Shown here piece by piece: positions 1,711 through 14,147 of a DNA stretch of 64,000 nucleotides. The stretch is taken from assembly GCA_963665115.1 (NCBI GenBank), contig OY762007.1, positions 2,560,001 to 2,624,000 on the forward strand, given 5' to 3'. The notes below the pieces were generated by a model. The model saw only the letters and a program-made list of their open reading frames with translations. It searched no databases and had not been told where the DNA came from. Origin of the DNA: an uncultured Rivularia sp. Lineage in GTDB: Bacteria; Cyanobacteriota; Cyanobacteriia; Cyanobacteriales; Nostocaceae. Numbering within the stretch: position 1 is the stretch's first letter; each line of letters begins with the position of its first letter. The position numbers were made by a program, and so were the translations under genes.

Positions 1711-1922
1711 CTACAAATTTAAAGCTAAAATTACTGTTTTTTTAGAAAAATAATGTATAAATTTGATACTAATTTTCAAAAAATGTATCATTCATATACC
1801 AAAAACTTTTGCTCAATTCCTTCTTAATTTATAATATTTAAGCTAAAATTCGATGCATAAGTCTAAATAGTTTAACCCTATTTAATTACAAATCATATTT
1901 ATAGCTAAATAATAATTAAGAA

Positions 1923-3395
1923 ATGAGCGCTGAAATTAATCCAGGAACTCTAATCAATAATCGCTATATAATTCAGAAAACTCTGGGAAGGGGCGGGTTT
2001 GGAAGAACTTATTTAGCTTTAGATAATCAGCGTTTTAACGAACCCTGCGTTCTTAAGGAGTTCTTACCCGATACTCAAAACGAGGGCGTTATTGAAAAAT
2101 CAAAAGAATTATTTGAACGGGAAGCAAAAGTTCTATATCAAATTAAACATCAACAAATTCCTGAGTTTTTGGCTTTGTTGACTCACGATAGACAACTGTT
2201 TATCGTTCAGGAGTATATTAACGGCAAAACTTATTTACAAATATTAGACGAACGTCTTACTAAGACTCGGAAGCCATTTTCGGAAGCGGAAGTTAGAACA
2301 TGGCTTTTAGATATGCTACCAGTTTTAGAATATATTCACAGTTGTAATATTATTCACCGCGATATTTCATTAGAAAATGTCATGCTTGCCAATAATCAAT
2401 CGAAACCAATATTGATTGATTTTGGAGTTGTTAAAGAGAAGTTTACCCAAATATTTTCAAGTCATTCGTCCCAATCCTTTAGACAAGCTTCGGTAGTAGG
2501 AAAAATTGGTTATTCACCACCAGAACAATTGCGTTTGGGACATTGTTATCCTTCCAGCGATATGTACGCACTTGCTGTTAGTGCGCTGATTCTTTTGACT
2601 GGTAAAATGCCGCATTTATTAATAGATGACTCTTTAAACTGGAACTGGCAATCTCATGTAAATCTTAGTAACTCTTTAGCTGGCATTCTTAATAAAATGT
2701 TGGCAGCAGTACCCAGCGAACGTTATCAATCGGCAAAGGAAGTAATAGCAGGGCTAACAAATAATCAAAGTTATAATACCAATTTGAACCAGACGGTTAC
2801 TAATAATAACTTGAAGCCAAAAATGTCATTAGGTGGCATTATTTCAAGTATATTACCGAGAAGAACCCAACAGAACGAGCAACAGAATGCGAATAATGAG
2901 AATCATTTTGAACAACTTGGACAAACACCAGTTTCTCAAAATCCCCAATTTGTAGATTATTGTCGTTCCCAGCTTACTAGTTTTGTAGGACCTTTAGCTA
3001 GTATTGTGATGGAGCAAACTTTGTCAGAAAACCCCGATATGGTGTCCAAAGATTTTGTAGAAGTTTTAGCTCAAAAAATTCCAGACGCACAAAGAGCAGA
3101 AAGTTTTAGAAGTCAGATCAAACTTCTTAAAGAATATAAAACAGAACAACCTCGCAAGCTAAATCAATCGGTTTCAAGTTTAACAACCACTCCTGCAATT
3201 AGTCACCCAGACTTTCTAGATTATTGCCGTAGAGAATTTAGCAGTTTTGTGGGACCTTTTGCTAGTGTAGTTATTAAAGATACTTTAGAGGAAAATCCAG
3301 ATTTAACTCCGAAGCAACTTGTAGAAAGATTGATGACTGGAATTCCTAATCGCAAAAGAGCAAAGGAATTTGAACAACGGATTCTTAAAGATTGA
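1923..3395 (+). CDS. Hanks-type Ser/Thr protein kinase with two tandem C-terminal helical repeats
   Basis: GRGGFG, VLKE, HRDIS, DFG, YSPPEQ; repeated unit 'YCR..L/F.SFVGP.AS.V'. Confidence 0.92.
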   Translation: MSAEINPGTLINNRYIIQKTLGRGGFGRTYLALDNQRFNEPCVLKEFLPDTQNEGVIEKSKELFEREAKVLYQIKHQQIPEFLALLTHDRQLFIVQEYINGKTYLQILDERLTKTRKPFSEAEVRTWLLDMLPVLEYIHSCNIIHRDISLENVMLANNQSKPILIDFGVVKEKFTQIFSSHSSQSFRQASVVGKIGYSPPEQLRLGHCYPSSDMYALAVSALILLTGKMPHLLIDDSLNWNWQSHVNLSNSLAGILNKMLAAVPSERYQSAKEVIAGLTNNQSYNTNLNQTVTNNNLKPKMSLGGIISSILPRRTQQNEQQNANNENHFEQLGQTPVSQNPQFVDYCRSQLTSFVGPLASIVMEQTLSENPDMVSKDFVEVLAQKIPDAQRAESFRSQIKLLKEYKTEQPRKLNQSVSSLTTTPAISHPDFLDYCRREFSSFVGPFASVVIKDTLEENPDLTPKQLVERLMTGIPNRKRAKEFEQRILKD

Positions 3396-3552
3396 GAATG
3401 GGTAATTGGTAATAGGTAGTTGGTAATAGTATTTGCAAAAATTGTTACAATTTTGATTTGTATAACCCTTGATTTTTATCAGTCAAATTACTATTTTTTT
3501 GCTTGTAGAGTAAAATTTATTACTTTTTTTCAAGAAAAGAAAAATTAAATTA

Positions 3553-4716
3553 TTAAGGTGTATTGTTTGCAATCTTGTATATACAAACAACTTTCTCTCG
3601 CCATGTAGACTCTTTCACAAATTCCATCCCAATTTTTTCTAAAACTTTTATTGAAGTTTGATTTTCTGGTTCGACAATTCCTAAAATATAATCAAAATTA
3701 AACTTACCAAAACCATATTTCAAACAAGCCTTCGCTGCTTCGGTTGCTAAACCCTGTCCCCAAAATTCCGAATCAATTCTATAACCCAATTCGTTTTCAA
3801 GTTTACCTTCTATTTCTTCAACCGCAATTCCACAATAGCCGATTAAACGTCCGCTTTCGCGATAAATTACAGCCCATTTTCCATAACCTTGTTTTTGATA
3901 AGAATCAAGAAAACTTTGAACTTTTACGGCTGTTTGTTTATAGGATAATATACCACTGGGTGAAAATTGCATTACTTCAGGTTTCGCAAGAATTTGCGCT
4001 AATGCTTCAATATCTGAAACTTGAAACTCGCGAATAATTAAACGTTCGGTTTGAGTAATAATTTTTTCTTCAATATCATTTTTAGTTGTAGCTAAACTAG
4101 ATATTCTCAAAACCTTTGCTAACCACTTAGTTTTAGAATTTAACCACAGAGTAAAAACAAGAAATAAATGTATTGCAAGAGTTATTTGAGCATAGGGTTT
4201 TACCGAAAAATCGTATATTCTTACCCAATCTCCGCGAAAAGCAGTGAATGAAAGCAGCGGATAAGCTACCAGCGAGAAAACAAGTTGAGCTTGAGCAAAA
4301 GTGTAAAATAAATGTTTTAAAACTGCTTTTTTAACCAAAGGTACCGCTAGAATCGCTAAAAAACCTAAAGTAATCGAAACTAAATTACCGCTAAACGCAA
4401 TCCACCAAGATTCTACAGGAAGAAAATTTCCCACAGCGATAACATAACCCCAAGCAACTCGCCATTGAAATTCTCTAACTTCACCACCTACCTGTAAAGT
4501 AGCTAAAGCGTGTCCAACTTCGTGAAAAAACACTCCTAACGGAATTAAAATAAAAACTGCAACTCTTTCTAACAAAAATCTATCTTTGGCAGTTACTTTG
4601 TCATCCCAAAATGAACGCCAATTGTTGAATAAACGAAAAATGGTGTCAATGCTGAGAATAGCGTAAATAATCGCCATGAAATCGAATGATGAGTCATTGA
4701 ACATAAATAACCTCAA
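3553..4716 (-). CDS. Membrane HExxH (M50 peptidase-like) domain fused to a RimJ/RimL-type GNAT acetyltransferase
   Basis: Hydrophobic N-half with HEVGH; C-half has TERLIIR, ELGY, WGQGLATEA and N..S..VLEKIG. Confidence 0.75.
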   Translation of the reverse strand: MRLFMFNDSSFDFMAIIYAILSIDTIFRLFNNWRSFWDDKVTAKDRFLLERVAVFILIPLGVFFHEVGHALATLQVGGEVREFQWRVAWGYVIAVGNFLPVESWWIAFSGNLVSITLGFLAILAVPLVKKAVLKHLFYTFAQAQLVFSLVAYPLLSFTAFRGDWVRIYDFSVKPYAQITLAIHLFLVFTLWLNSKTKWLAKVLRISSLATTKNDIEEKIITQTERLIIREFQVSDIEALAQILAKPEVMQFSPSGILSYKQTAVKVQSFLDSYQKQGYGKWAVIYRESGRLIGYCGIAVEEIEGKLENELGYRIDSEFWGQGLATEAAKACLKYGFGKFNFDYILGIVEPENQTSIKVLEKIGMEFVKESTWREKVVCIYKIANNTP

Positions 4717-4717
4717 A

Positions 4718-5101
4718 TCAAATTAGTTTGATTGGGTAAGCACGAATTGCTTTATCCGCTGTTGCAATTGATAAATTATGTTGTAAAGCTTGACAAATCA
4801 ACATTCTATCAAAAGGATCGCGATGTAAAGACGGTAGTTTTGTAAGTTGAACTACACTGCTTTCATCTAGATTCAGATTAATAATTTGATGGCGATCGCG
4901 CTGTCTGGGAAGATAAATATCGGGAGGTTCTGGTAATGGTAATTTACCCAATTTATATTTAACAATACATTCCCAAATTGAAATAATACTTAAATAGACT
5001 TCATTGTCATAATCACAAATAGCATTTCTAACCTCTGTTGATAATCTGTTATCACCATTGACAAACCATAAAAAAATGTGTGTATCTAGAAGAATTTTCA
5101 T
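4718..5101 (-). CDS. vapC: VapC-family PIN-domain toxin
   Basis: LLDTH..LW, SIISIWE, HRDPFDRML..QA. Confidence 0.92.
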   Translation of the reverse strand: MKILLDTHIFLWFVNGDNRLSTEVRNAICDYDNEVYLSIISIWECIVKYKLGKLPLPEPPDIYLPRQRDRHQIINLNLDESSVVQLTKLPSLHRDPFDRMLICQALQHNLSIATADKAIRAYPIKLI

Positions 5102-5337
5102 TTGCCCTCAAATGCATCCAAAATATCATCTGGTAAAGGATCATCAAAATCATCGGGTACTGTAAATTCTCCTTTACACAAAGCAAATGGTCTTCGTGGC
5201 TTTTTATTATTTATAATTGGCTTAAGTTCGGCAATAGGCTTGTCTTCTTGCATAATAATAAAGCTTTCACCTGCTTCAACTTGATTTAGGTACTTTGAAG
5301 GATTTTCTTGAATTTCTTGGATTGTGATTTGTTGCAT
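5098..5337 (-). CDS. Phd/YefM-family antitoxin
   Basis: 79 aa; VEAGE...PIAEL and VPDDFDDPLP tail; 4-nt overlap with the PIN toxin gene. Confidence 0.88.
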   Translation of the reverse strand: MQQITIQEIQENPSKYLNQVEAGESFIIMQEDKPIAELKPIINNKKPRRPFALCKGEFTVPDDFDDPLPDDILDAFEGK

Positions 5338-5429
5338 TTAATTACTTTGGGATAATCTTATCAGGAAAGGAAATACTCAATTTGATTGTAAATCATTAGT
5401 TAAGTTAACTGAATAATAACTAATATCAC

Positions 5430-6071
5430 TTAATACAAACCAAATCGCTCATCTTGTTCAATTAAAGCCTGTATTTCTTCGACGCTTTCTTTAAGATTTG
5501 CTGCATCTACCATTGTTTGCGCTAACGATGGTAAATCATCGATAGATTGCCAATTGTCGCTTTGCCATATTTTAGAGCGCAACATACATTTAGCACAGTG
5601 AAAAAACGCTTTTTTAATATTAACTACAAGCGCAAAATCTGGAATTTTATTATTAATAGCCATACTTTCCCGCAAAGGTGCATCTCTGACAATAATTGCA
5701 CTTCCACTCATTCGCAAAGTTTCACCTTTACCCGGTACGAGAAAGAATAAACCAACTTTGGGATTTTCTAGTATATTTTGAAAAGTATCTGCTCGACGAT
5801 TTCCTAGTCTATCAGGAATAGCTAAGGTATTATCATCAAGTATTTGCACAAATCCGGGTGGATCTCCTTTCGGTGATATATCCATGTTTCCATTAGCATC
5901 TGATGAAGCGATAAATACTAAAGGTGATTTTGCAATAAAAGCGCGACAGTGTTTATCTAATTTTGGGATTACGATATCGGTGACTCGATGGCTGGGATAT
6001 CCCATTACTTCCCGCAGTTGTTCAACGGTGGTGATGATTTCGGAAAATTGAGTTTTCATGGGTGTTTTCAA
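5430..6071 (-). CDS. Pyridoxamine 5'-phosphate oxidase-family FMN-binding protein
   Basis: DISPKGDPPGFV, PDR.GN.R.D...NI..NP.VGL.F, FHCAKC..RS.IW. Confidence 0.85.
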   Translation of the reverse strand: MKTPMKTQFSEIITTVEQLREVMGYPSHRVTDIVIPKLDKHCRAFIAKSPLVFIASSDANGNMDISPKGDPPGFVQILDDNTLAIPDRLGNRRADTFQNILENPKVGLFFLVPGKGETLRMSGSAIIVRDAPLRESMAINNKIPDFALVVNIKKAFFHCAKCMLRSKIWQSDNWQSIDDLPSLAQTMVDAANLKESVEEIQALIEQDERFGLY

Positions 6072-6292
6072 CTTATTTTAAATTAAGATAGTTTATGAGG
6101 AAATAATAAATAGTCTTTTCTTATTCATCAATATTCTTTAGTAATGGGATAAATTCGATCGGCTATTCCCTATTTAAATAATGTCGGATTAGTTACAAAT
6201 TAACCTCAATCATTAAGAAAAATTAAAAAACCGTTTTTTTCAATCGACTGTTGAAGTTTTACTTAGAATATTACATGGGAGGTAAGTTATAT

Positions 6293-8188
6293 ATGACGGA
6301 TTTATCACAAAATAATCAAAATAATCTGCTTCTACTCGATAAATTAAAAAGCGCCAAACAAGAATATAACTATAGCTATAGTCGTATTCCACCGATTGCG
6401 ATGGTGGATGAACTTCCCGGTAAAGAGAATTTTTCTACTGGCTGGCTGCGTTTGTTGGCTAAGGAGTTAAAAGTTGTTTTTATCAATACTTTGATTGCAA
6501 ACCGGGGAAATCGTGGTTCTGAAAATGTTCGCGATGATGTCAGACTTTTTCTCCTCGAAGTGTTGGCTGAAGGAGCATTACCTTTTAATTTGGGTGTTAC
6601 TGCTAGAGTTTTACAAATTATTCCTAACTTATTACTTACAGGATTATCAAAAGATTATAGCGAAATCGACGAGTTGTTCTTTTCCATACTCAAGGAAAGC
6701 GGACTTTCAATTTTTCAAGATTCCTTGAATCGAGTTAAGAGCCTTCTGTATAAAGATCAAACTACCGGGCATGCAAGCAGTCTGAATGATTATCATAAGC
6801 TGTTTCCAGAAATGGGAGTACCGGAAATAGCTAAGAATTTCTCCGATGATGAACAATTTGCTTATATGCGAGTTGCTGGATACAATCCCGTAACGATCGA
6901 GCAAGTAAATAAATTGGGAGACAGATTTGGGGTTACGGAAGCTCAATTTCAAGAAGTAATGGGAAATGACGATTCTTTAGCCGCAGCAGGAGAAGAAGGA
7001 AGGCTTTACCTGGCTGATTATGGAATTTTAGAAGGTGCTGTGAATGGCACTTTCCCCAAACAACAAAAATATATTTATGCTCCCTTAGCGTTATTTGCTG
7101 TTCCTAAAAATTCCGATGAATCCCCTTTGATGCGTCCAATTGCGATTCAATGCGGTCAAAATCCGCAAGATAATCCTGTTTTCACGCCAAAATCTGATAA
7201 ATATACTTGGTTATTTGCAAAAACCATCGTGCAAATTGCAGATGCTAACTATCACGAGGCTGTAACCCATTTAGGGCGTACTCATTTATTTGTAGGGGCC
7301 CCCTTTGCGATCGCAACTCATCGTCAATTACCAGAAAATCATCCGGTTAATATTCTGTTGCTTCCCCATTTTGAAGGTACTTTAGCAATAAACCATGCAG
7401 CCCAAAGAAGTTTAATTGCTCCTGGTGGGGGTGTGGATAGATTACTTGCATCGACTATTGACAATTCCCGTGTTTTGGCAGCAGTTGGTTTGCAAAGCTA
7501 TGGTTTCAATGAAGCGATGTTGCCCAAGCAATTGGAAAAACGCGGAGTCGATGATATTGAAAAGCTACCTGTTTATCCATACCGCGATGATGCGCTGTTG
7601 ATTTGGAATGCGATTCATGTATGGGTTACAGACTACTTAAAAATTTATTATAAAAGCGATGCCAGCGTTCAAAACGACGCTCATCTTCAGAATTGGGCTA
7701 TTGAAGCAGCAGCTTATGAAGGTGGAAGAGTTCCAGATTTTGGTCAAGAAAATGGGCGCATTCAAACTTTAGATTACCTAATTGATGCTGTAACGCTGAT
7801 TATTTTCACTGCTAGCGCTCAACACGCTGCGGTTAACTTTCCGCAGGGAGACATGATGAACTATGCACCAGCAGTTCCCTTAGCTGGTTATCAACCTGCT
7901 TCAATTCTTGAAGGTAAAGTTAGCGAGGAAGACTACTTAAATTTACTTCCACCTTTAGAGCAAGCCCAGCAACAATTAAATCTAGTCTATATACTTGGAT
8001 CTATTTACTACAAAACTTTAGGTGATTACCCAGATAATTACTTCAAAGATGCCTTAGTCAAAACAGCTTTAAAAGCATTCCAAACAAATTTACTGGAAAT
8101 AGAAGATACTATTCATAAACGCAATAAAAATCGACCGAATTACGAATATTTGCTTCCTTCAAAAATTCCTCAAAGCATCAATATTTAG
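6293..8188 (+). CDS. lox: Lipoxygenase (non-heme iron)
   Basis: HEAVTHLGRTH, HAAVNF and C-terminal SINI iron ligands; W..AK and YRDD motifs; ATG at 6293 follows a GGAGGT RBS. Confidence 0.95.
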   Translation: MTDLSQNNQNNLLLLDKLKSAKQEYNYSYSRIPPIAMVDELPGKENFSTGWLRLLAKELKVVFINTLIANRGNRGSENVRDDVRLFLLEVLAEGALPFNLGVTARVLQIIPNLLLTGLSKDYSEIDELFFSILKESGLSIFQDSLNRVKSLLYKDQTTGHASSLNDYHKLFPEMGVPEIAKNFSDDEQFAYMRVAGYNPVTIEQVNKLGDRFGVTEAQFQEVMGNDDSLAAAGEEGRLYLADYGILEGAVNGTFPKQQKYIYAPLALFAVPKNSDESPLMRPIAIQCGQNPQDNPVFTPKSDKYTWLFAKTIVQIADANYHEAVTHLGRTHLFVGAPFAIATHRQLPENHPVNILLLPHFEGTLAINHAAQRSLIAPGGGVDRLLASTIDNSRVLAAVGLQSYGFNEAMLPKQLEKRGVDDIEKLPVYPYRDDALLIWNAIHVWVTDYLKIYYKSDASVQNDAHLQNWAIEAAAYEGGRVPDFGQENGRIQTLDYLIDAVTLIIFTASAQHAAVNFPQGDMMNYAPAVPLAGYQPASILEGKVSEEDYLNLLPPLEQAQQQLNLVYILGSIYYKTLGDYPDNYFKDALVKTALKAFQTNLLEIEDTIHKRNKNRPNYEYLLPSKIPQSINI

Positions 8189-8254
8189 CAAAAATAGGTA
8201 ATAGCATTAAGAATCTTTAAAACAGTAAATAAAAGTAAATAATAAAGGAAAATT

Positions 8255-9601
8255 ATGGCAATTAGAGAAGAAGTTATCAAATCTCAAAAACGTCAAATTG
8301 AGCTTTCACGTACTTTAGCTAAAGTCGGCTATGACAGTACAATTGGTCAAATACTACGTTTACGATTGTATTATCAAGACGGCTTATTATTGCTGCGGAA
8401 ATTTAAGAGTTTTCTTTATACAGCTAAAGAAGTGTTTGGAGACAAATTTTTCGGAGGAGACCAAGCAATTATACATACCTCTCATGCTGAAGTAAAGAAA
8501 CTAATGCAAGTCGAACCTCAAGTGCGGGGAAACGATTTGGGTATCATTAGAATGTTAGCTCCGAGCTATTTGCTTAACAACCCGTTGAGTTTGGGAATGA
8601 ACGGTACTCAACATACAGGTGCCCGTGCTTTATTTTTACAAGCTTTACCAGAACCCTCGCAAAACATAGAAACTTTAAGCAATTTAGTTAATCAATGTTT
8701 ATCAGAAGCAGCCCAAAAAGGCGAATTACATATTGGTAAAGACTTACCAAGAATGATGCTGAAAATTTTGCATCAACTTGTTTTCCAAATTTCATTATCT
8801 GAAGAAGAAATCACTGCATCAACTGGTTACAATAAAAAGCTGTTTCTGGCATCTCTACCAAATTTTTTGAATAAATATACGCTGGGATTACTAACAGCAC
8901 CAAGCGTTAAACATCGCCAGCAATTAACGCAGAAATACAAAGAATCCCCACTATGGTCATCTTATCTAGAAACGGGTGCCAAATATAACTTGAATCCACA
9001 TCAAATTGCTAATATTCTTTTTGATATGATTCATATTGCCGGAACTCTTGGTACTAGTGCGCTTTTGGGTTCTACCATTGGGGTTTTATGTTTAGATGAA
9101 GCTTTGAGAAATCAAGTAAGTTCAGAAATTAATACAGTTTGGAATGAGCAAGAAACTCTGAATGCAGATGCTTTAAATAATTCGGTATTAATTAACAAGG
9201 TAATTCTAGAAACCGCCCGTCTTTACCCAGCAGTAAGATTTGTTAGCCAGCTAGCCAAGGAACCAGGAGAAATAGAAATAGGTGAAGCAAAATGCCCATT
9301 CCAAAAAGGTACTCGCTTACTTGGTTCTATCTTTACTGCTAATAGAGATGCTGCAAGATACAATAATCCAGATAGTTTCGATATTGAACGCGATTTTTCA
9401 GATATTTTATCTTGGAACGGTCACGGACACGAACGCGCTTGTCCTGGAAGAGATTTATCCGTCGGCTTAATCAATATCTTCTGTTTATACTTGTTCAAAC
9501 ATTACAAATGGGATTCAATTACAGAAGTTAAATGGGAATTTGAAAAAGTGACTGCTGTGACACCAAATGAATTAGTGTTACAGGGTTTTGCGCGACGTTA
9601 A
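8255..9601 (+). CDS. Atypical cytochrome P450 (CYP74-like features; candidate fatty-acid hydroperoxide-metabolising enzyme)
   Basis: K-helix ETARLYP, PDSFDIER meander, heme loop SWNGHGHERACPGRD, I-helix AGTLGTS; 66 bp after lox with an AAGGA RBS. Confidence 0.85.
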   Translation: MAIREEVIKSQKRQIELSRTLAKVGYDSTIGQILRLRLYYQDGLLLLRKFKSFLYTAKEVFGDKFFGGDQAIIHTSHAEVKKLMQVEPQVRGNDLGIIRMLAPSYLLNNPLSLGMNGTQHTGARALFLQALPEPSQNIETLSNLVNQCLSEAAQKGELHIGKDLPRMMLKILHQLVFQISLSEEEITASTGYNKKLFLASLPNFLNKYTLGLLTAPSVKHRQQLTQKYKESPLWSSYLETGAKYNLNPHQIANILFDMIHIAGTLGTSALLGSTIGVLCLDEALRNQVSSEINTVWNEQETLNADALNNSVLINKVILETARLYPAVRFVSQLAKEPGEIEIGEAKCPFQKGTRLLGSIFTANRDAARYNNPDSFDIERDFSDILSWNGHGHERACPGRDLSVGLINIFCLYLFKHYKWDSITEVKWEFEKVTAVTPNELVLQGFARR

Positions 9602-9769
9602 TAAGAACTTAGGCATTAAGGATTGAGCATAGAGATAAGAATCAAAAAATACTCGCTCAAAAATAATTGGTTGTTGCTTTTTTATTCTGATCTAATCCAA
9701 AATCGTAAATCTGTCTTGGAAAGTTTGATGGGAAGAACATTTCTCTATCAACTTTCCACAAAATAAAAA

Positions 9770-10342
9770 ATGAAATTTATTATGACTATAAAAATTGAAG
9801 AAAAACAATTAGATAATATTGCAAGCTGGATGAAACCAGTTAAAGAAACTGACTTACCAAGCATCCTTAAAGGTGTGTTTTTTATGGATGGCAATCCGCT
9901 GCCGGATGATTGTATCACCATGTATAACTTAGAGTGGGATGCCCAAAATAATACTTTGTTTCTACCAGTATTTGGACAGGTGCAGTGGACTTTCCATAAC
10001 TCTATTCAAGGAAGGTTACTACTTATTTTTGCTTGGTTGTTTCAGTTTACTTACAAAATTCAGTTTGAAGACGAAACTCTACAAAAATCGCAAATCATAC
10101 CCTTATCATTAGGGATACCAATTCCTAGATGGATAATAAATCCGACAATGTGCCAAGTTGAAAACTCTGACAATGGAGATACTTGGAAACGCGAAAACCT
10201 TTGGTTAGGTGTAATTCCACAAATTGGCAATTATACACTTCGTAGAATTGTCGATAAAGATGGTAATTACACTTCCGATTTTGACGATATGCTTAGCAAA
10301 GTTCAAAATGAATGTTTGGTAATTGCCAGAAGCTCGGTTTAA
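9770..10342 (+). CDS. Hypothetical protein, co-oriented with lox and the P450
   Basis: 190-aa ORF with conserved-looking GVFFMDGNPLPDD and WTFH segments; family not recognised. Confidence 0.7.
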   Translation: MKFIMTIKIEEKQLDNIASWMKPVKETDLPSILKGVFFMDGNPLPDDCITMYNLEWDAQNNTLFLPVFGQVQWTFHNSIQGRLLLIFAWLFQFTYKIQFEDETLQKSQIIPLSLGIPIPRWIINPTMCQVENSDNGDTWKRENLWLGVIPQIGNYTLRRIVDKDGNYTSDFDDMLSKVQNECLVIARSSV

Positions 10343-10349
10343 GATAATG

Positions 10350-10949
10350 TTAATGTTGAGTACGAATACTCCGAATATACCCAATCGCTACAATCAAAGC
10401 ATCCAACATAATTTCATAACTTTCATCAGTTGAACGTTCAAAAGTCATCATTCCGGCTTGCTCGACGCTAATAAATCCGTAAATAGCAGCGTTAACCATT
10501 CGCATCGCATCAATTAGTTGATTTTCTGTTAAATCGTAACCCTGTATTCCCTGTTGAAATAAACCCAAGGCTTCTTTTATAACCGCACCCGCATCTTTAT
10601 CTGTAGGATGTAATTGATACTGCATCATAACTTTGTAACGTGCTGGATACAACTTGGCAAAGTTGCGGTTAGCCATCCCCCCGGCTTTGAATAACTGATG
10701 TAATTCGTTTATTTCTTGGGTTTTTTCGCGACAATAATCTAAAAATTGCCGCCAAATTGTTAAAACTACTGCTTTTCTCAACTCCGCGTTTCCATTGAGA
10801 TGTTTATAAATCGCTGGTGGTTTTATACCTAACTCTCGCGCTACCCGATTCACTCCTAGAGCAGATTCTCCCTCTTTATCCAAACAGGCGATCGCAGCTT
10901 CAATTACATCTTGAGGAGTTAGTGAATTTTCTTTTGTCGGACGACCCAT
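10350..10949 (-). CDS. TetR/AcrR-family transcriptional regulator
   Basis: N-terminal HTH (VARELGIKPPAIYKH); C-terminal YGFISVEQAG. Confidence 0.92.
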   Translation of the reverse strand: MGRPTKENSLTPQDVIEAAIACLDKEGESALGVNRVARELGIKPPAIYKHLNGNAELRKAVVLTIWRQFLDYCREKTQEINELHQLFKAGGMANRNFAKLYPARYKVMMQYQLHPTDKDAGAVIKEALGLFQQGIQGYDLTENQLIDAMRMVNAAIYGFISVEQAGMMTFERSTDESYEIMLDALIVAIGYIRSIRTQH

Positions 10950-11055: not shown

Positions 11056-12523
11056 ATGAATGATTTAGTATTCAAACCCGCACATCAACTTGCTCGAATG
11101 ATAAAGGAGCATCAGGTTTCTGCGGTTGAGGTATTGGAAGCACATTTAAATCAAATTTCTCTGCATAATTCTAAGCTGAATGCAATTTGCACTTTTAATA
11201 AAAACGCTCTTGAAACTGCGAAACAAGCCGACGAAGCTTTAGCAAATGGTGAGAATTGGGGAATGCTTCACGGCGTGCCGATAACAATTAAAGATACTTT
11301 TGAAACTGCTGGGCTGCTTACTACTGCGGGTTACGCGCCATTAAAAGACTATATTCCTACAGAAGATGCAACTGCTGTGGCACGTCTTCGCAAAGCTGGA
11401 GCAATTATTATCGGCAAAACTACTCCGTCTCAACTAGCTGGTGATTATCAGGGAATTAATGATATATTTCCTCGTGTAAATAATCCTTGGAATCTGGAAT
11501 ACACGCCAGGTGGTAGTACTAGCGGGGGAGCAGCAGCGGTTTCGGCAGGGTTTTCATCTTTAGAATTAGCTTCTGATATTGGTGGTTTCGATTCGTCATC
11601 CGGCTCACTTTTGCAGATTATATGGACTCAAGCCGACAGATAGAAGAGTTCCGACTACCGGGCATATTGGCGATACTACGAATATGGATTCTCGCTGTAT
11701 TCGGCAAATGCTTACTGTCGGTGGATTGGCGCGTTCTATTGAAGATTTGAGCTTGTGTATAAAAATAATCGCTGGTGCAGATAATCGTCAACCTAATATT
11801 CCTCCCGTACCTTTGGATGAAGTTGAGGAGAAAAGTTTAGAGAATCTAAAAATTGCTTGGATTGATGAATTACCTTTATATCCTGTTGCTAAAGAAATTA
11901 AATCTGCAATGCAAGCGGTGAGAAAAAAGCTTGCGGATGCTCGGATTAATGTTGAAAGTTGGATACCAAAATACGATTTTGCTGCTGCATGGGAGGTTTT
12001 TTATGCTGTGGGTACCTATAACCTGATGTATACTCAACCCACGGATTTGAAAAACCTTAGTTTTATGTGGAAGGAAGCGACACAAGGAGATAAATCATTA
12101 CGGAAATTAAGTAAAATCCCTAATGTAGTACTACCAATATTTATAAAAAAATCCTTGAAAGGTTATTTTGCAGCTTTAACACAAAGAGATAATTTGATTG
12201 CTCAAATGGATCGAGAATTAGAGCAGTGGGATGTATGGTTGTGCCCTGTTGCGATGACAGCTGCATTTACTCATAGAGATAAAGGTGCAGCAGTTGAAAT
12301 TGATGGTAGAAAAGTTCCTTATCAGATGGCGAATGGTGCTTATGTAGTTCCTTTTAATCTTACCGGACATCCGGTTGTAGTGATTCCGATTGGTTTTACG
12401 AAGGATGGATTACCGATTGGGATGCAAATTGTTGGTAAAAGATGGAAGGAGATGGAATTATTGAGTATTGCTGGGAAGTTGGATGAAATTATCGGGGGTT
12501 TTAAACATCCGTCTCTATATTAA
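11056..12523 (+). CDS. Amidase-signature enzyme (+1 frameshift near 11585, probably a sequencing error)
   Basis: GVPITIKD, PGGSTSGG and SDIGG/SIRHPAHFC are split across two frames; paralog of the next gene. Confidence 0.85.
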
Positions 12524-12656: not shown

Positions 12657-14147
12657 ATGAATGATTTAGTATTTACACCCGCACATCAACTTGCTCGAAT
12701 GATAAAGGAACGATCTGTTTCTGCGGTTGAGGTATTGGAAGCACATTTAAATCAAATTTCTCAACATAACTCTAAATTAAATGCAATTTGTACTTTAAAT
12801 CAAAACGCTCTTGAAACTGCAAAACAAGCCGATGAAGCGTTAGCCTCATGTGAAAATTGGGGATTGCTTCACGGAGTACCGATAACAATTAAAGATATTT
12901 TTGAAACTGAAGAAGTACGTACAACGGCAGGATATAAACCGCTCAAAGATTACATTCCGACTCGTGATGCTACGGTAGTGGCACGTTTGCGTGGTGCGGG
13001 AGCAATTATTTTAGGTAAAAGCAATACTGCCGAACTTGCGGGGGAATATCAAAGCGTTAACGATCTTTTTCCTCCGGTTAATAATCCTTGGAATCTAGAT
13101 TGTACTGCTGGCGGTAGTTCTGGGGGAAGTGCGGCGACTGTTGCGGCTGGTTTTTCGCCGTTAGATATAGGAAATGATGTTTCTGGTTCGATTCGTCAAC
13201 CCGCCCATTTTTGTGGTGTTTATGGACTAAAAACAACCGATAGAAGAGTATCTTCAGCCGGACAAATACCGGAAGTTCCGGGACAGCCAAAGTGCATTCG
13301 TCAAATGCAAACGATCGGTCCTTTGGCGCGTTGTATTGAAGATTTACGGTTATCTTTTACACTAATTGCGGGTGCGGATATTCGACAGCCAGATATTGCG
13401 CCGGTTCCCTTTGATACGATATCTGGTAAATCTTTGCAAGATTTGCGGGTGGCTTGGATGGATGGTTGGGATAAGCTCCCCGTTGCTGCGGAAATTAAGT
13501 CTGCAATGCAAGCTGTAGCAAAGGATTTAACTGAAGCTGGTGTAAAGGTGGAAAGTTGGATTCCTCAAATTGATATAGAAGAGATTTTACAGTTGTGCGA
13601 TCGCCTAATTGCCTATAATTTCGTTTATTCCCAACCCGTTGACTTTGCAACTGCTAAAAAAAGGATTCCCATGATATTTCGGGAGATGACGCAGGGGGAT
13701 AAGGAGTTACGAAAAATCAGCAATATGGGAGATTATTTACCTGAGTTGTTAAATCCGACTTTGAAAGGATATTTTACAGCTTTGACGAGAAGGGATAAGT
13801 TCATTTCCCAAATGGATAAAGCAATGGATAATTGGGATGTATGGTTATGTCCGGTTGCAATGACTTGTGCGTTTACGCATCGTCCTATGGGTACATTTAT
13901 AGATGTAGATGGTAGAAAAGTACCTTATTTATTAGTAAATGGTGCTTATACTTCATTGTTTAATCTTACAGGAAATCCGGTTGTGGTGATTCCTATTGGT
14001 TTTACGAAGGATGGATTACCGATTGGAATGCAAATTGTTGGTAAGCGATGGAAGGAAATGGAATTGTTGAGTATTGCCCAGAAGTTGGATGAAATTGTTG
14101 GGGGTTTTCGGAATCCAGATCGTTTCTTGTTACAAAGCACAGTTTAG
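12657..14147 (+). CDS. Amidase-signature enzyme
   Basis: GVPITIKD, GGSSGGSAA, GNDVSGSIRQPAHFCG, GLPIGMQIVG. Confidence 0.93.
   Translation: MNDLVFTPAHQLARMIKERSVSAVEVLEAHLNQISQHNSKLNAICTLNQNALETAKQADEALASCENWGLLHGVPITIKDIFETEEVRTTAGYKPLKDYIPTRDATVVARLRGAGAIILGKSNTAELAGEYQSVNDLFPPVNNPWNLDCTAGGSSGGSAATVAAGFSPLDIGNDVSGSIRQPAHFCGVYGLKTTDRRVSSAGQIPEVPGQPKCIRQMQTIGPLARCIEDLRLSFTLIAGADIRQPDIAPVPFDTISGKSLQDLRVAWMDGWDKLPVAAEIKSAMQAVAKDLTEAGVKVESWIPQIDIEEILQLCDRLIAYNFVYSQPVDFATAKKRIPMIFREMTQGDKELRKISNMGDYLPELLNPTLKGYFTALTRRDKFISQMDKAMDNWDVWLCPVAMTCAFTHRPMGTFIDVDGRKVPYLLVNGAYTSLFNLTGNPVVVIPIGFTKDGLPIGMQIVGKRWKEMELLSIAQKLDEIVGGFRNPDRFLLQSTV

Follow-up and report, generated by a model that had tools for sequence, protein, structure and literature searches.

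A conserved lipoxygenase–CYP227A–ORF3 gene module in an uncultured Rivularia and its likely role in oxylipin formation

The DNA analysed here is a 64,000-nucleotide stretch (the window) of contig OY762007.1 (GCA_963665115.1, positions 2,560,001 to 2,624,000), taken from an uncultured Rivularia sp. whose 8.69-Mb genome was assembled as a single contig. Three genes of the window encode a lipoxygenase (LOX), a cytochrome P450 and a small protein designated open reading frame 3 (ORF3; Table 1), and judging from sequence they are likely to form one oxylipin pathway. The P450 is assigned by its identities to subfamily CYP227A and is probably a hydroperoxide isomerase that works without a redox partner, likely an epoxyalcohol synthase or a bicyclase. 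A role with LOX hydroperoxides is supported by synteny, by P450-LOX fusions in the same lineage and by loss of the acid-alcohol pair that activates oxygen. An earlier note on this DNA had proposed a plant-like LOX-P450 oxylipin pathway with a CYP74-like P450. The functional part of that proposal is sustained by the same three lines of evidence, and the CYP74 identity is not.

The LOX-CYP227-ORF3 arrangement is a real, conserved module. Co-orientation of the three genes and the 66-nt spacer between LOX and P450 (8189-8254) had been described in the earlier note, and both hold on the open reading frame coordinates. When the neighbourhood was surveyed, as that note had also proposed, gene order was found to be kept: a LOX gene lies no more than 700 nt upstream of the P450 in 14/14 named genome loci, 9/10 sampled genomes and 19/21 testable metagenome loci, and ORF3 lies no more than 600 nt downstream in 13/13, 9/10 (721 nt in the tenth) and 26/27, respectively. 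Note that these sets overlap and share ancestry, that 8/29 metagenome loci were too short to test for LOX, and that the metagenome scan returned only loci at least 50% identical to CYP227. Because the order is kept across genera, the trio is more than a chance association; the genes flanking it differ between loci.

Of 401 cyanobacterial genomes sampled, 11 contain CYP227; in this sample they all belong to one family, and further records come from Leptolyngbya and Lyngbya. Full-length LOX proteins more than 60% identical to that of the window occur in 11 sampled genomes and are encoded next to CYP227 in 10 of them. ORF3 was found in 29/401 genomes, beside CYP227 in 11, directly behind a second, sister P450 from the clade that contains CYP227 in 16 and as a broken orphan in two; ORF3 follows the P450 more faithfully than LOX does. 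At one locus (L032, G044:C45, 6037-8818) two tandem CYP227 copies, 65% and 58% identical to the query, stand between LOX and ORF3, a possible case of product diversification. In genome G368 the P450 is frameshifted.

P450s are usually placed in a subfamily when they are more than 55% identical to its named members. The P450 of the window is 90% identical to the Rivularia PCC 7116 protein (CYP227A5), 65% to the Calothrix PCC 6303 protein (CYP227A4), and 69% and 64% to CYP227A proteins of Nodularia and Nostoc CENA543; the Nostoc punctiforme member of the family is CYP227A1. The names A4 and A5 are those given in the supplement of PMC7014017. The earlier note had allowed that the protein may represent a distinct lineage, which it does, as a member of this named family. 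In the literature covered, CYP227A appears as a named family only, with no mention of LOX linkage or function. Neither a CYP227 function nor a report of the trio was found in the open literature; subscription primary reports on CYP5164 and on cyanobacterial LOXs may mention the neighbourhood.

Homologue searches found 164 relatives of the P450, the best 120 of which are all at least 59% identical to it. Among representatives at 50% clustering, only 14 scored below 1e-30. The structure model of the P450 (predicted local distance difference test score, pLDDT, 94.6) shows a P450 fold that matches solved P450s at Z of about 30-32 in VIA. Sequence searches of the PDB with the P450 gave weak, generic P450 matches only, CYP74A2 ranked 35th when the CYP227 family profile was used, and ESM Atlas returned only generic P450 clusters.

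The superfamily hallmarks E319, R322 and C396 are invariant in an alignment of 79 homologues. So are A262, G263, T264, G266 and S268 of the I-helix; at position 265, 78/79 have Ala or Leu and one has Glu. Aligned to canonical P450s, 265 falls in the acid column and 266 in the Thr column of AGx(D/E)T, so that with Ala or Leu at the first and Gly at the second the acid-alcohol pair is wholly lost. The earlier note had recorded the missing acid of AGTLGTS correctly, and the catalytic Thr is gone as well (G266, 79/79). The haem loop SWNGHGHERACPGRD (S386-D400) is Trp-led and lengthened, as had also been noted: the spacing from Trp to Cys is 9, versus 7 in canonical P450s and 16 in Arabidopsis allene oxide synthase (AOS). 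D257 and H260 are invariant too, and are candidates only for a residue that assists O-O cleavage.

Table 1. Features of the LOX-P450-ORF3 locus (window coordinates)
Feature	Position	Strand	Remarks
LOX gene	6293-8188	+	ATG start; PF00305 E=1.5e-62; 631 aa as assembled, likely 630 aa
G/C run with 3 extra bases (one extra codon) in LOX	7295-7299	+	likely assembly artefact
P450 gene	8255-9601	+	448 aa; PF00067 E=1.2e-16, above cut-off
I-helix motif A262-G-T-L-G266-T-S (AGTLGTS, A262-S268)	9038-9058	+	alignment, 79 homologues
K-helix ExxR (E319-R322)	9209-9220	+	invariant in 79/79
Haem loop W387...C396	9413-9442	+	Trp-to-Cys spacing 9 in 79/79
Short dispersed repeat	9693-9740	.	P450-ORF3 spacer; 6 further partial copies in genome; loose contig ends here
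ORF3	9770-10342	+	190 aa; no Pfam or NCBIfam match; predicted lipocalin/streptavidin-like beta-barrel

Membership of CYP74 was rejected on the I-helix Asn, the haem-loop insertion and an approximately unbiased (AU) test. CYP74-clan enzymes have an Asn in the I-helix (PMC8124189) and a nine-residue insertion in the haem loop (PMC8124189, PMC10813956). The Asn column holds Asn in 11/11 CYP74-clan references and Ala262 in 79/79 CYP227 proteins, and the insertion is +2 in CYP227 versus +9 in CYP74, in agreement with the earlier remark that it is shorter than in plant CYP74. CYP227 thus resembles CYP74, the partner of plant LOXs, in its predicted class of chemistry, its lost acid-alcohol pair and its Trp-led loop, but lacks the Asn and the nine-residue insertion. 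In three metagenome proteins (P0286, P0343 and P0354) haem-peroxidase/dioxygenase domains are fused to true CYP74-clan P450 domains of the bacterial type.

For phylogeny, a CYP74 reference set was built from proteins of the P450 homologue search; a profile of nine of them matches Arabidopsis AOS at E 5.5e-71. The CYP227 profile matched this set over its full length at E 1.6e-32 and another set, characterised by an AGxxG helix and a W/F-N loop, at E 5.9e-46, both sets being hand-picked from search matches. A phylogeny against the CYP74 clan had been suggested in the earlier note. In a 38-row mixture-model tree the CYP74 references form one clade (100/100) with CYP227 outside it, in a separate 22-row clade (91/93) together with the AGxxG lineage; the two clades are weak sisters (88/73). 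The same picture emerges from a quick tree of 62 rows (99 and 99). Forcing CYP227 together with four bacterial-type CYP74 rows was rejected (p-AU 3.75e-10), whereas placing CYP227 and five near relatives as sister to CYP74 was not (p 0.45). The rows were hand-chosen, with fragments excluded; the trees have long branches and include no plant CYP74 and no characterised CYP5164 sequence.

Fusion proteins tie the same P450 lineage to LOX. Among 150 P450 representatives listed, six carry a LOX domain, and two more join a P450 to a PLAT domain, one of which continues into the beginning of a LOX. Where the source is named, these proteins come from the diatom Stephanopyxis turris, the chytrid Nowakowskiella and Plasmodiophora brassicae; the P. 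brassicae cluster contains a full P450-PLAT-LOX protein. The fusion P450 domains included in the tree have the AGxxG helix (AAxxG in one) and fall in the same clade as CYP227 (91/93); they require at least two changes on the tree. No reductase domain was found in eight P450-LOX/PLAT fusion proteins scanned. In one protein, P0292, P450 and LOX share a single chain with a domain resembling ORF3 (E 7e-21); no relative of this triple fusion was found in viral contigs. Fusions of the P450-(PLAT)-LOX type were recorded as P0292, P0278, P0268, P0270, P0364, P0390 and P0409; in two of them, P0292 and P0278, the fourth iron-ligand column of the LOX holds Gly.

The sister P450, which Pfam does not detect, lies directly upstream of an ORF3 homologue in 16 genomes outside the family of the window (L049-L063, L065). 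It is about 39% identical to the dinoflagellate protein P0265 and is often encoded near petB/petD. A P450 of this lineage, likewise missed by Pfam, also occurs in G302 (L131, G302:C13:23000-37000, 1739-8310), in a co-oriented run of a lipase-3, a LOX (757 aa), the P450 and an epoxide-hydrolase-like gene. The fourth product is an alpha/beta hydrolase whose best PDB matches are epoxide hydrolases (E 2e-34). This run is a candidate for a complete pathway from epoxyalcohol to triol, in which its members would carry out substrate release, oxygenation, rearrangement and epoxide opening.

The LOX of the window is of bacterial type and is predicted to be 13S-specific. Its best PDB sequence matches are bacterial 15-LOXs (E 5.6e-120), and all iron ligands are present (H326, H331, H511, N515 and the C-terminal I631). 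S products are predicted because the Coffa residue is Ala370. The LOX contains one codon more than its relatives: the three extra bases near 7297 do not occur in the contigs of three of four sequencing runs (X2, X4 and X5), contigs of the fourth run break there and lack one base, and of 31 distinct LOX segments compared, the 30 others lack the codon. It is therefore likely to be an assembly error, and the one-residue insertion was dropped as a real lesion. A second LOX is encoded elsewhere in the genome. Activity as 13-LOX has been reported for the cyanobacterial linoleate LOXs of Rivularia PCC 7116 and Calothrix HK-06 and for NpLOX1/2 (PMC13319228, PMC9498203, PMC10487465), which fits the Ala at the Coffa site here. 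These organisms carry the trio or its ORF3/CYP227, although the assayed enzymes may be LOX paralogues other than the CYP227-linked ones.

In favour of the pathway, the genome contains a desaturase cluster, tentatively labelled desA/desB, that would be expected to supply C18 polyunsaturated fatty acids (PUFA). The third gene of this cluster (L143 2599-3668, G000:C1 near 7183900) is split in the assembly by two extra bases that are absent from contigs of three of the four runs. The gene is likely intact, and a real lesion in this omega-3-type desaturase was discarded as a candidate in favour of assembly error.

In the proposed pathway, LOX would convert free linoleic or alpha-linolenic acid to its 13S-hydroperoxide, which CYP227A would rearrange without O2, NAD(P)H or ferredoxin. 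The ferric haem would split the O-O bond homolytically, the resulting alkoxy radical would close to an epoxyallylic radical, and rebound of OH would give an epoxyalcohol; with an omega-3 double bond present, the sequence may end instead in cyclisation to a heterobicycle. We infer every catalytic step from the hydroperoxide chemistry of CYP74 and CYP5164 enzymes (PMC10813956, sections 4 and 6; PMC12843491; PMC9214053). Given isomerase activity, an epoxyalcohol is the leading product, at a little under an even chance; a plasmodiophorol-type heterobicycle and a lyase or divinyl ether product are each considerably less probable, to about the same degree, and an allene oxide slightly less so again. 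The preference for an epoxide product derives mainly from the single G302 locus.

Several observations weigh against the assignment as a hydroperoxide isomerase paired with LOX. CYP227 lacks the Asn that is catalytic in CYP74. For wounded N. punctiforme, which carries CYP227A1, a passage in the review PMC10487465 names 13-LOX hydroperoxides and no P450 product. CYP227 resembles the fusion proteins only weakly (E about 1e-10 to 1e-4), the Pfam p450 model misses P0292, P0270 and P0364, and P0292 lacks Cys48 of ORF3 in addition to having Gly as fourth LOX ligand. No LOX adjoins the sister P450 and ORF3 of the 16 genomes in the 10 wider regions examined; P450 genes without an adjacent LOX occur in G026, L105 and L118, and in G059 the LOX orthologue stands alone, with neither P450 nor ORF3. 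Finally, the LOX-P450 spacer is as long as 490-580 nt in some orthologues, so that a single transcript is not assured.

ORF3 has 154 homologues, most of which start at a position matching its second ATG (9782), and no Pfam, NCBIfam, PDB-sequence or ESM Atlas match was found for it. Its model (pLDDT 92.2) is a predicted beta-barrel of eight strands, and it matches lipocalins, nitrophorins and further barrels of that kind weakly, at Z 5.0-6.6, a range common for the tool. The top structural match is a haemoglobin linker barrel (Z 6.6), many lipocalins fall at Z 4.4-5.6, none reaches Z 8, and the best Foldseek E is 0.011. Residues G35, D40, G41, N42, D46, W139, R141, Y155 and L157 are conserved between the cyanobacterial proteins and the triple fusion P0292, and the polar ones would suit a carboxylate-binding or catalytic pocket. 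C48 is invariant in 91 aligned cyanobacterial-type homologues and is found in neither P0292 nor L118. ORF3 likely binds the lipid product or converts an epoxide further.

The barrel also bears on the best of the other explanations, in which the P450 is an AOS and ORF3 a convergent allene oxide cyclase, together giving cyclopentenones such as 12-oxo-phytodienoic acid (12-OPDA). Plant allene oxide cyclase is a beta-barrel as well, and ORF3 follows an AGxxG P450 in 27 of the 29 genomes that have it. The plant cyclase is not among the structure matches listed for ORF3, and absence from that listing does not exclude it. Foldseek ranked the AOS structures 3dan and 3dam first and second with the P450 model, but this lead amounts to a tie (E 5e-13 versus 3e-12, with equal template-modelling scores), and CYP74A is outside the top 50 of VIA, where the monooxygenases CYP90B1 and CYP120A1 come first (Z 31.8). 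Structure searches with the predicted model do not discriminate CYP74 from other P450s. With both the CYP74 Asn and the insertion absent, and with an epoxide-hydrolase-like gene in place of ORF3 in G302, which suits a more stable epoxide, we regard this pairing as unlikely.

Slightly less probable again is a peroxygenase that takes the LOX hydroperoxide as oxygen donor and epoxidises or hydroxylates a second fatty acid, with reduction of the hydroperoxide to its alcohol. Such an enzyme would equally need no redox partner and would explain the LOX linkage, and the weak PDB sequence matches include CYP152 peroxygenases. These matches are at E about 3e-5 over the generic C-terminal part, however, and the I-helix lacks the Arg of the Arg-Pro motif that characterises CYP152 peroxygenases.

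It is improbable that the P450 is a conventional ferredoxin-dependent monooxygenase whose substrate is a hydroxy fatty acid derived from LOX and assists in proton delivery. Some P450 monooxygenases do manage without the conserved Thr, ferredoxin of the photosynthetic apparatus could act in trans, and the best VIA matches are monooxygenases; yet acid and Thr are both lost across CYP227, and the lineage is fused to LOX with no reductase domain in the eight proteins scanned. CYP227A1 is in the primer list of a screen of reductase-fused P450s on 47 non-lipid compounds, from which only CYP110E1 is reported active (PMC3411444), a weak point since CYP227A1 may not have folded. That P450 and ORF3 form a general lipid-peroxide scavenging module with LOX as a neighbour of convenience is very improbable: the pair does occur without adjacent LOX in G026 and L118 and in genomes of one genus that carry the sister P450, but these genomes encode LOX elsewhere, and association with LOX is seen in two P450 sub-lineages as well as in fusions that imply at least two changes on the tree.

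The nearest candidate home of CYP227A is the CYP5164 clan, to which it possibly belongs. This clan (EsEAS, CYP5164B1; the bicyclases CYP5164A3 of Ectocarpus and CYP50918A1 of Plasmodiophora brassicae) is separate from CYP74 and uses 13S-hydroperoxides (PMC10813956, PMC12843491). The clade containing CYP227 includes the P. brassicae P450-LOX protein and other proteins of stramenopiles, alveolates and rhizarians (SAR), a likeness to the sources of CYP5164. That P. brassicae protein (clustered with CEP00685.1) differs from the characterised CEO97746.1, however, and in the literature covered the clan is described from eukaryotes only, whereas CYP227 is bacterial. A profile search for characterised CYP5164 sequences returned five proteins, none so named.

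The hydroperoxide-converting enzymes of cyanobacteria described in the literature covered are catalase-related. The AOS and hydroperoxide lyase partners of LOX or 10S-dioxygenase in Acaryochloris marina and N. punctiforme (PMC8124189, PMC13049297) pair a dioxygenase with a hydroperoxide-converting haem protein, adjacent or fused, as here. They have a catalase fold, and no barrel partner is described for them, whereas the trio combines a P450 fold with a barrel.

A wider and decidedly tentative proposal would make CYP227 the bacterial member of an ancient, third lineage of hydroperoxide-rearranging P450s, with AGxxG and without Asn, that extends over cyanobacteria, chytrids and SAR protists and probably takes in the CYP5164 bicyclases. 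ORF3 would then be a new barrel enzyme acting on the reactive epoxide or allene oxide, and three proteins would give filamentous cyanobacteria a cyclic or bicyclic oxylipin signal not seen so far. Confirmation of the isomerase would give the orphan family CYP227 a function, provide a soluble model from bacteria for hydroperoxide rearrangement without the Asn, and give the discussion of how O2-independent P450s arose a bacterial anchor. ORF3 would define an unannotated family tied to oxylipin P450s. LOX partners of the trio type are already of biocatalytic interest.

No ferredoxin or reductase gene adjoins the trio, as the earlier note had stated. Its neighbours are a divergent PPOX-type flavin mononucleotide (FMN) flavoprotein (TIGR04025; window 5430-6071, minus strand) on one side and a convergent TetR regulator (10350-10949, minus strand) on the other, flanks that only a few close relatives have in common. 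An Fe-S cysteine pattern was found in no frame of the 64-kb window. A promoter scan was uninformative, with 13 sites, fewer than the 15.8 expected, and no terminator found. Beyond the regulator, an amidase (11056-12523) is split into two overlapping open reading frames, which may be another assembly indel; an intact amidase paralogue lies 3' of it at 12657-14147.

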